From NCBI RefSeq assembly GCF_050920415.1, contig NZ_CP169309.1: a stretch of DNA of 64,000 nt; one strand, given 5' to 3'. Made by a program: the position numbers and the translations under genes. Under the pieces are notes generated by a model. That model saw only the letters and a list, made by a program, of their open reading frames with translations. It was not told the origin of the DNA and ran no database searches. Positions 43,494 to 46,203 of this stretch are shown piece after piece; the first letter of the stretch is position 1; every line of letters starts with the position of its first letter. The DNA is from Escherichia coli. GTDB lineage: Bacteria; Pseudomonadota; Gammaproteobacteria; Enterobacterales; Enterobacteriaceae.

Positions 43494-44132
43494 TTAACGT
43501 GGTCGAATCCCCTCAAGAATAATCCGCTGCACGTTTTCAACCGTTTGATTGAAAAACACTTCATCGCGCAACGTGGCACCTGTCACCGCCTCCACCTGAG
43601 GGGCGAAATCGGCGTAATGTTGAGTGGAAGCCCAGATCATAAAAATCAAATGCTGCGGATCAATCGGCGCGAGTTTGCCGCTTTTAACCCAACCGGCAAT
43701 CAGCGCCGATTTCTCATCAATTAACGTTTTCAAATCGCCCGTTAGCTCATCCATTAATAACGGTGCGCCTGCCAGCATCTCCATACAGAACAGGCGCGAA
43801 GCCTGCGGATAATCGCGGGAGACTTCCAGCTTCAGACGGATGTACTCTTTAATCGCTGCCAGTGGGGCGAAATCTTCACGAAACGCCTTCAATGGTGCCA
43901 ACCAGATATCCAGAATTTGTCGCAGCACGGCAATATACAGCGCCTCTTTAGACGGGAAGTAATACAGCAGGTTGGTTTTTGAAACGCCTGCCAACTCTGC
44001 GATCTGCTCCAGCCTTGTGCCGTGAAAACCGAATTGTGAAAAAGTGTCCAGTGCTGCGCTAAGAATCGCTTTTTTCTTCGCGCTTACTGCGCGCGAACGC
44101 TTACCCGTTGTTTTCACTGCGCCTTGCGTCAT
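43494..44132 (-). CDS. rutR: TetR-family regulator RutR
   Basis: ORF 43494..44159; start set at MTQGAVKTT to give 212 aa; N-terminal TetR HTH. Confidence 0.9.
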   Translation of the reverse strand: MTQGAVKTTGKRSRAVSAKKKAILSAALDTFSQFGFHGTRLEQIAELAGVSKTNLLYYFPSKEALYIAVLRQILDIWLAPLKAFREDFAPLAAIKEYIRLKLEVSRDYPQASRLFCMEMLAGAPLLMDELTGDLKTLIDEKSALIAGWVKSGKLAPIDPQHLIFMIWASTQHYADFAPQVEAVTGATLRDEVFFNQTVENVQRIILEGIRPR

Positions 44133-44238
44133 GCGCTCTCCCCTCTTGTTGATTGGCAACAGGATAGCAAAACCCCCGCCCGGCCTCGACCTTCTGCACT
44201 CTCATCGCGCACGAATGCATGTTTTATGTGCAACTGTT

Positions 44239-44254
44239 TTGACCGTTTAGTCCA
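44239..44254. promoter_or_regulatory. possible RutR box
   Basis: TTGACCGTTTAGTCCA partially matches the palindromic TTGACCAnnTGGTCAA. Confidence 0.35.
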
Positions 44255-44317
44255 CTTTTTTCCAGGCATTTTAGACAACTTAGCATTAACACATTAATAA
44301 CATTCACTTTTTAAAAA

Positions 44318-44334
44318 CTGGCATCCGCTTTGCA
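44318..44334 (+). promoter_or_regulatory. sigma54 (-24/-12) promoter of the rut operon
   Basis: cTGGCATccgctTTGCAa fits TGGCAC-N5-TTGCA, ~30 nt upstream of the rutA start. Confidence 0.7.
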
Positions 44335-44362
44335 AACAAGCCATTACGCGGCTGAAAAGGAT

Positions 44363-46203
<1,841 letters not shown>

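Follow-up and report, generated by a model that had tools for sequence, protein, structure and literature searches.

A sigma54 promoter and a RutR operator in the divergent rutR-rutA control region of Escherichia coli correspond to mapped K-12 sites

The rutR-rutA control region of E. coli is already known, and both of the motifs analyzed here, a sigma54 (-24/-12) promoter and a RutR box, match sites that were experimentally mapped in strain K-12. The DNA under study, called the window throughout, is a 64-kb stretch of an E. coli genome in which rutR and rutABCDEFG are transcribed divergently. We are confident, though short of certain, that the region between them is an enhancer-dependent sigma54 promoter with a built-in repressor operator. 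There is little discovery value in this, the region having been studied since 2000-2007 and being backed by maps of sigma54, RutR, and NtrC binding across the genome. Its value is that of a positive control, with both published sites recovered from raw sequence to within one base. Comparative analysis added base-level NtrC and IHF candidates, the helical phasing of an enhancer/operator module, evidence bearing on which start codon rutA uses, and a conserved motif in the leader, all of use to anyone dissecting how this promoter combines nitrogen and pyrimidine signals. These details are incremental, and of all the elements only the leader motif might open something new.

Identity of the promoter and operator with K-12 sites

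Annotation of the neighborhood gave the order putA-rutR-rutABCDEFG. The rutR gene (43494..44132, minus strand, start codon at 44132-44130) encodes a TetR-family, uracil-responsive regulator, and rutA (44420..45511, plus strand) encodes the pyrimidine monooxygenase and is the first gene of rutABCDEFG. The spacer (44133-44362) is 230 bp long and aligned without gaps to that of K-12 MG1655. A 2.2-kb query from the locus had matches in 5421 of 5426 complete E. coli genomes, and putA-rutR-rutA-rutB was annotated in all of the matches listed. These 2.2 kb were 100% identical to E. coli MFDS1022581 and ~97.7% identical to most E. coli.

Set against rutAp/rutR-rutA of K-12 (b1012-b1013), this is the same locus with the same spacer length of 230 bp, and the sigma54 17-mer, the RutR box, and the NtrC-like sites are identical. 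The two spacers differ by 13 substitutions (15 across the 341-bp alignment), 10 of which are clustered between the RutR box and the promoter, at 44261-44305. In the IHF-like site a single substitution is present, within the unspecified N4; the specified positions of all five proposed elements are unchanged.

The rutABCDEFG promoter, CTGGCATCCGCTTTGCA, lies at 44318..44334 on the plus strand, with its GG at 44320-21 and its GC at 44332-33. The first-pass annotation had reported TGGCAT-N5-TTGCA at this place, and the motif is indeed there; its proper span is 44319-44334, the quoted start at 44318 being the preceding C. The claimed fit to the -24/-12 consensus also held, as the GG and GC are 10 nt apart, which is the canonical geometry. 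By taking C 44333 as -12 we arrived at a predicted start at ~44345. The further claim of a correct spacing to rutA did not stand, as spacing of this kind is no true criterion: from the predicted start it is 18 nt to a K-12-style ATG at 44363 and 75 nt to the start codon at 44420, with the promoter itself 29 nt upstream of the first ATG and 86 nt upstream of the second.

The pattern TGGCAY-N5-TTGCW occurred once in the 64-kb window versus 0.34 matches expected, and at least one match was found in 27 of 100 shuffles. With a position weight matrix derived from 30 published sigma54 sites, from which rutA was excluded, the rutA site scored 15.5 bits, which equals the median of the real sites; only one other match in the window scored higher. 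The top score in the window was reached in 14% of shuffled windows. It belonged to CTGGCACAAATATTGTT (38105-38121, minus strand, 15.9 bits), a match whose score is compatible with chance and which is sense-oriented inside a 502-aa open reading frame (37561-39069) of the size and position expected of putP. A second sigma54-like motif in the spacer, TTGGCAACAGGATAGCA (44153-44169, plus strand), has a GG-N10-GC arrangement directed toward rutA and is probably due to chance; most of the sampled E. coli have it, but one of them (L003) has TT in place of the GG, and other genera have TGCCA.

Comparison with K-12 showed that the 17-mer is identical to the ChIP-seq site assigned to rutA (PMC4591121). 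In that study by Bonocora et al. (2015), sigma54 peak OS10 contains the motif CTGGCATCCGCTTTGCA on the rutA strand with a PSSM score of 9.96 and a predicted start 18 bp before rutA, and the rutA promoter is flagged as predicted ("P") in the EcoCyc column (PMC4591121). A genomic-SELEX peak for the RpoN holoenzyme, with an intensity of 71-73%, was likewise placed in the rutA/rutR spacer by Shimada et al. in 2021 (PMC8743547). Because the site is identical to the K-12 sequence, we apply sigma54 binding to the present strain. Our search of the literature, in which Zimmer 2000, Loh 2006, Kim 2010, and Shimada 2007 were known through later papers only, found no mapped rutA transcription start.

The RutR box, TTGACCGTTTAGTCCA, occupies 44239..44254 and is centered at ~-98.5 from the predicted rutA start. 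It had been described as a partial match to the palindromic RutR consensus, and this was borne out: it agrees with TTGACCAnnTGGTCAA at 11 of 14 positions and has the consensus bases at position 4 (A) and position 13 (T), the two most important in the consensus according to Shimada et al. 2008 (PMC2475637). When the window was scanned with the consensus, allowing up to 3 mismatches, 3 matches were obtained versus 2.65 expected. TTGACCGTTTAGTCCA is the exact reverse complement of TGGACTAAACGGTCAA, the K-12 RutR site for rutA, an intergenic 11/14 site that was detected by ChIP-chip, that RutR bound in gel-shift assays, and that was already among the known RutR targets (PMC2475637). A rutA-rutR fragment binds RutR with a KD of ~8.6 nM, and uracil inhibits this binding with an I0.5 of ~9 nM (PMC2952853). 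In K-12, transcription of rutR starts upstream of the box, and uracil-sensitive autoregulation of rutR is lost when four bases of the operator are mutated (PMC4325133). Since the box is identical to that of K-12, we take RutR binding, uracil sensitivity, and the autoregulatory role to apply here.

A strict sigma70 consensus scan of 44050-44480 gave no promoter. In a relaxed scan, the best -10/-35 pair on the minus strand was a candidate sigma70 promoter of rutR at 44268..44297, composed of a -35 element TTAATG (44297-44292), an 18-bp spacer, and a -10 element TAAAAT (44273-44268), with a predicted start at ~44261. This start would put the RutR box at ~+8 to +23, which agrees with the published position of the box (PMC4325133).

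Conservation of the spacer and candidate NtrC and IHF sites

Eight E. coli genomes that span the range of identity to the window were compared. The sigma54 motif, the RutR box, and NtrC-like site B were invariant among them, and polymorphisms were concentrated at 44261-44306. Within E. coli, 3 of 80 motif columns were variable versus 28 of 207 other columns (Fisher p = 0.018). In the locus of E. coli 23CRST001 (L083, 3501-3590), a deletion that extends from inside NtrC-like site A into rutA removes the RutR box, the promoter, and the 5' end of rutA, and rutA is annotated there as a pseudogene.

A scan based on RutA, with one genome per species, yielded 80 loci, and motifs were counted over 79 of them. 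The rutR gene is upstream of rutA in nearly all loci (in Escherichia, Pantoea, Erwinia, Serratia, Yersinia, and Stutzerimonas/Pseudomonas) and is divergent in all but one. A sigma54-type motif preceded rutA in 78 of 79 loci, versus 0.8% of shuffled controls, and a RutR box with a match of at least 10/14 was present in all 79, versus 10% of shuffled controls. From an alignment of 33 Enterobacteriaceae sequences and RutR-anchored views of the other families, we found that the order NtrC-like site A, NtrC-like site B, RutR box, IHF-like site, and sigma54 promoter is kept in Enterobacteriaceae, Erwiniaceae, and Yersiniaceae. Stutzerimonas/Pseudomonas has the same order of elements and the same spacing of A, B, and the RutR box (20-21 and 23 bp), and the NtrC-like dyads of Stutzerimonas, TGCACGATCTTCGTGCA and CGCACAAACCAGGTGCT, are nearer to consensus. 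A variable stretch at ~44261-44286 is not conserved, and a T/A tract is located between the IHF-like site and the promoter.

The start-to-start distance between the RutR box and the sigma54 motif, taken over loci L003-L082, was 68-71, 76-81, or 88-90 bp. The resulting classes are separated by steps of about one helical turn, which suggests that the enhancer/operator module may be constrained to one face of the helix relative to the promoter, as for a looping enhancer.

Two tandem RutR boxes, ~20 bp apart, were observed in Erwiniaceae and Yersiniaceae (for example TTTACCAAATGGTCTA followed by TAGACCAAATGCTCAA; loci L025, L032, L034, L037, L039, L053, L063, L067, L069, and L071). Enterobacteriaceae, including the present window, retain only the first of the two. 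Two further blocks between rutR and the NtrC-like sites are strongly conserved, namely CAGGATAGCAAA at 44160-44171, which is CAGCATAGCAAA in most genera, and CTCGACC at 44185-44191. The first of these is near the rutR ribosome-binding site, and on the rutR strand it reads TGcTATCCT, an extended -10-like sequence ~28 nt before the rutR ATG. This block may be a second rutR promoter or a site for another protein.

Two NtrC-like dyads are present 87-140 bp upstream of the sigma54 promoter. Site A, TGCACTCTCATCGCGCA (44195..44211), is centered at ~-142, has the consensus TGCAC-N7-G-N2-CA, and is offset by -44 from the RutR box. Site B, TGCATGTTTTATGTGCA (44216..44232), is centered at ~-121, has the consensus nGCnTG-N6-GTGCA, and is offset by -23; its distance is 21 bp to site A and 6 bp to the RutR box. 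Each of the two sites matched TGCACC-N5-GGTGCA at 9 of 12 positions, a pattern that was found in the window at chance rate (29 matches versus 31 expected). The same scan matched a 181-bp tandem repeat at 23658-24320 (3.7 copies, 98% identity) three times, at 181-bp intervals; in each unit of this repeat a T-run follows a terminator-like hairpin. In the comparison of species, conservation at fixed offsets was 81-97% for the outer half-sites TGCAC and GTGCA. The right half of site B, GTGCA, was conserved at 81-94% per position over 79 sequences and did not vary among the 33 aligned Enterobacteriaceae sequences. On average, the match to the NtrC consensus peaked sharply at -44 and -23 from the RutR box, with values of 5.5/12 versus a background of ~3. 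From this pattern of conservation we infer that sites A and B are bound by NtrC.

NtrC control of the operon, which the first-pass annotation had also proposed, is consistent with a K-12 ChIP-seq peak in the region (PMC4066584). In nitrogen-starved NCM3722, a K-12 derivative, this peak at ycdMLKJIHG (= rutABCDEFG) was 94-fold, at low resolution (PMC4066584). As the sites are identical to those of K-12, we apply NtrC occupancy of the region to the present strain too. By coordinate conversion, its interval corresponds to ~44295-44375 of the window, which is centered on the promoter and not on the proposed upstream sites. The rutA-rutR spacer was absent from NtrC genomic-SELEX peaks at the level of at least 40%, and we found no NtrC footprint on the region in the literature. 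Reviews state that the rut operon is under sigma54/NtrC control.

Between the putative enhancer and the promoter is an IHF-like site, TAACACATTAATA (44287..44299, plus strand, centered at ~-52), which has one mismatch to the consensus YAA-N4-TTGATW (WATCAANNNNTTR core). This block is the most conserved of the spacer in the 33 Enterobacteriaceae, and a role for it in IHF binding is what we infer from its sequence. It is possible, although we lean away from this explanation, that the block is conserved as the -35/UP region of the rutR sigma70 promoter and that looping relies on intrinsic curvature alone. The best rutR -35 candidate, TTAATG, does overlap the block, the region is A/T-rich with T- and A-tracts, and our literature search found neither a link between IHF and rutA nor IHF binding at rutA. 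What the -35/UP explanation leaves unaccounted for is that the conserved core follows YAAnnnnTTGATW, a pattern that is perfect in several species (for example at loci L006, L063, L065, L067, L069, and L071), and that the block persists in Pseudomonadaceae even though the rest of the spacer has diverged. The IHF and promoter roles are, moreover, not mutually exclusive.

The rutA leader and start codon

Transcription from the predicted start would give rutA a 5' leader of ~75 nt (44345..44419, plus strand). It includes the K-12-style ATG at 44363 and the motif GCAGGATGC at 44365-44373, and a Shine-Dalgarno sequence, GAGAGG (44408-44413), precedes ATG 44417/44420. The rutA start codon is ATG 44363 in the K-12 annotation, which gives a protein of 382 aa, versus ATG 44420 as called by PGAP in MFDS1022581, which gives 363 aa. 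As coding sequence, the 19-codon N-terminal extension of K-12 RutA (44363-44419) lacks conservation. The corresponding stretch of other species contains in-frame stops, is in another frame, lacks a start codon, or has a ~45-nt deletion, and the E. coli of locus L003 has an in-frame TGA within it. The PGAP call and the conservation pattern favor ATG 44420 as the probable start of rutA. Among RutA crystal structures, both the 382-aa and the 363/364-aa forms exist.

The leader motif, GCAGGA(T/A/C)GC at +21 to +29, was invariant in 23 species from three families (Enterobacteriaceae, Erwiniaceae, and, represented by Serratia, a third), whatever the frame or start codon. It matches CAGGA(U/A/C)G, the CsrB-repeat element described as a CsrA target (PMC7652899), and it can present the GGA in a small hairpin loop. 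A second GGA is found close by, at 44359-44361.

We looked for structured RNA in the leader. An Rfam scan of 44100-44500 with E-values up to 10 returned no match, the only conserved structure that RNAalifold gave for 23 rutA leaders was a 2-bp GC/GC clamp, and the fold of the single leader sequence was no better than that of shuffles (z = +1.6). A riboswitch or attenuator is supported by neither RNAalifold nor the single-sequence fold. We also rejected a conserved upstream open reading frame or leader peptide (MQDAAPR...): the start codon varies among ATG, GTG, CTG, TTG, CCG, TCG, and AAG, the frame relative to rutA is 0, 1, or 2, and the length ranges from 5 to 44 codons.

A literature search found no link between CsrA and rutA, and the supplementary tables of CsrA CLIP-seq contained no rutA peak. 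One peak in those data, peak_110, is inside the K-12 rutR coding region (U00096 1074528-1074704). That the leader motif is a site for CsrA or another RNA-binding factor, and so an undescribed post-transcriptional layer that links pyrimidine catabolism to carbon status, is a speculation that we hold to be doubtful. If it is true, the 19-residue N-terminal extension of K-12 RutA is leader RNA and not protein.

A proposed mechanism and its relation to known systems

We propose that sigma54 RNA polymerase would form a closed complex on CTGGCAT-N5-TTGCA at 44318-44334. Under nitrogen limitation, phosphorylated NtrC would occupy the two adjacent sites at 44195-44211 and 44216-44232, and an IHF-type bend at ~-52 (44287-44299) would bring it to the polymerase, where the NtrC ATPase would drive open complex formation and transcription from ~44345. 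When uracil is absent, a RutR dimer on 44239-44254 would block rutR transcription as a roadblock, as shown in K-12, and apo-RutR may also dampen activation of rutA by hindering NtrC assembly or looping. Uracil binding would release RutR, which was likewise shown in K-12, and phosphorylated NtrC could then activate the sigma54 polymerase. By this combined RutR and NtrC logic, full expression of the operon would be expected only if a shortage of nitrogen coincides with a supply of pyrimidine. Putative parts of this scheme are the start site, the IHF site, the exact positions of the NtrC sites, and the mode by which RutR interferes with rutA activation. The overall claim of the first-pass annotation, that pyrimidine catabolism is controlled by NtrC and RutR, is in keeping with the K-12 sigma54, RutR, and NtrC binding data.

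The effect of RutR on rutA has been reported both as repression (PMC4325133) and, in an earlier paper of the same group, as "activation" (PMC2952853). It could be argued that the RutR box is solely the autoregulatory operator of rutR, where RutR acts as a roadblock, and that it has no direct effect on a rutA promoter controlled essentially by NtrC. We consider this unlikely. It is true that the direct genetic test of the box was made with a rutR-lacZ fusion (PMC4325133), that the box, ~99 bp upstream of the rutA start, is outside the polymerase footprint, and that rutA mRNA was neither raised nor otherwise changed in exponential phase when rutR was deleted or RutR was inactivated by acetylation. 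That mRNA experiment is uninformative here, however, because NtrC is inactive under those conditions and derepression could not show. Passages of later papers that cite Shimada 2007 and Loh 2006 also have RutR repressing rutABCDEFG through this single box, and the fixed 23-bp offset between the box and site B, kept from Pseudomonadaceae to Enterobacteriaceae, suggests a functional link to the enhancer. The RutR footprint at carP1 covers 26-28 bp and extends 6-8 bp past the box; a footprint of that size here would extend, on one side, as far as the edge of NtrC site B and, on the other, to the predicted rutR start. RutR may be an anti-activator, preventing NtrC by steric hindrance from assembling on a helically phased enhancer.

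Judged by sequence only, the two motifs do no better than chance in 64 kb, and it might be held that both arose by chance and lack a function in this strain, given that the sigma54 pattern appears in 27% of shuffles, that 14% of shuffled windows reach the top matrix score, and that RutR-like matches occur at chance rate; this is practically refuted by the identity to bound K-12 sites, by the invariance of the motifs in the sampled E. coli while the adjoining spacer varies, and by their occurrence in 78-79 of 79 loci from several families versus 0.8% and 10% of shuffles. It is because they are identical to bound K-12 sites, invariant in E. coli, and conserved across species that we accept both sites as real.

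Promoters of the glnAp2/glnHp2 type have a GG-N10-GC core and a pair of NtrC dyads located over 100 bp upstream on one face of the helix, and glnHp2 has an IHF site between the enhancer and the promoter. The rut region resembles them in its GG-N10-GC, its two upstream NtrC-like dyads, and its intervening IHF-like site. It differs in that its NtrC-like sites are weak, with one good half-site each, in that a TetR-family operator is placed between the enhancer and the IHF-like site, and in that a divergent sigma70 promoter shares the same DNA. The carP1 operator belongs to the same family of 16-bp boxes (carA, TTGACCATTTGGTCCA; rut, TTGACCGTTTAGTCCA) and has a similar affinity for RutR (9.5 nM, versus 8.6 nM for rut). 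At carP1, the box is far upstream, at -184.5, and the effect of RutR is positive, as an anti-repressor, whereas the rut box adjoins the enhancer downstream of the rutR start and the effect of RutR is negative.
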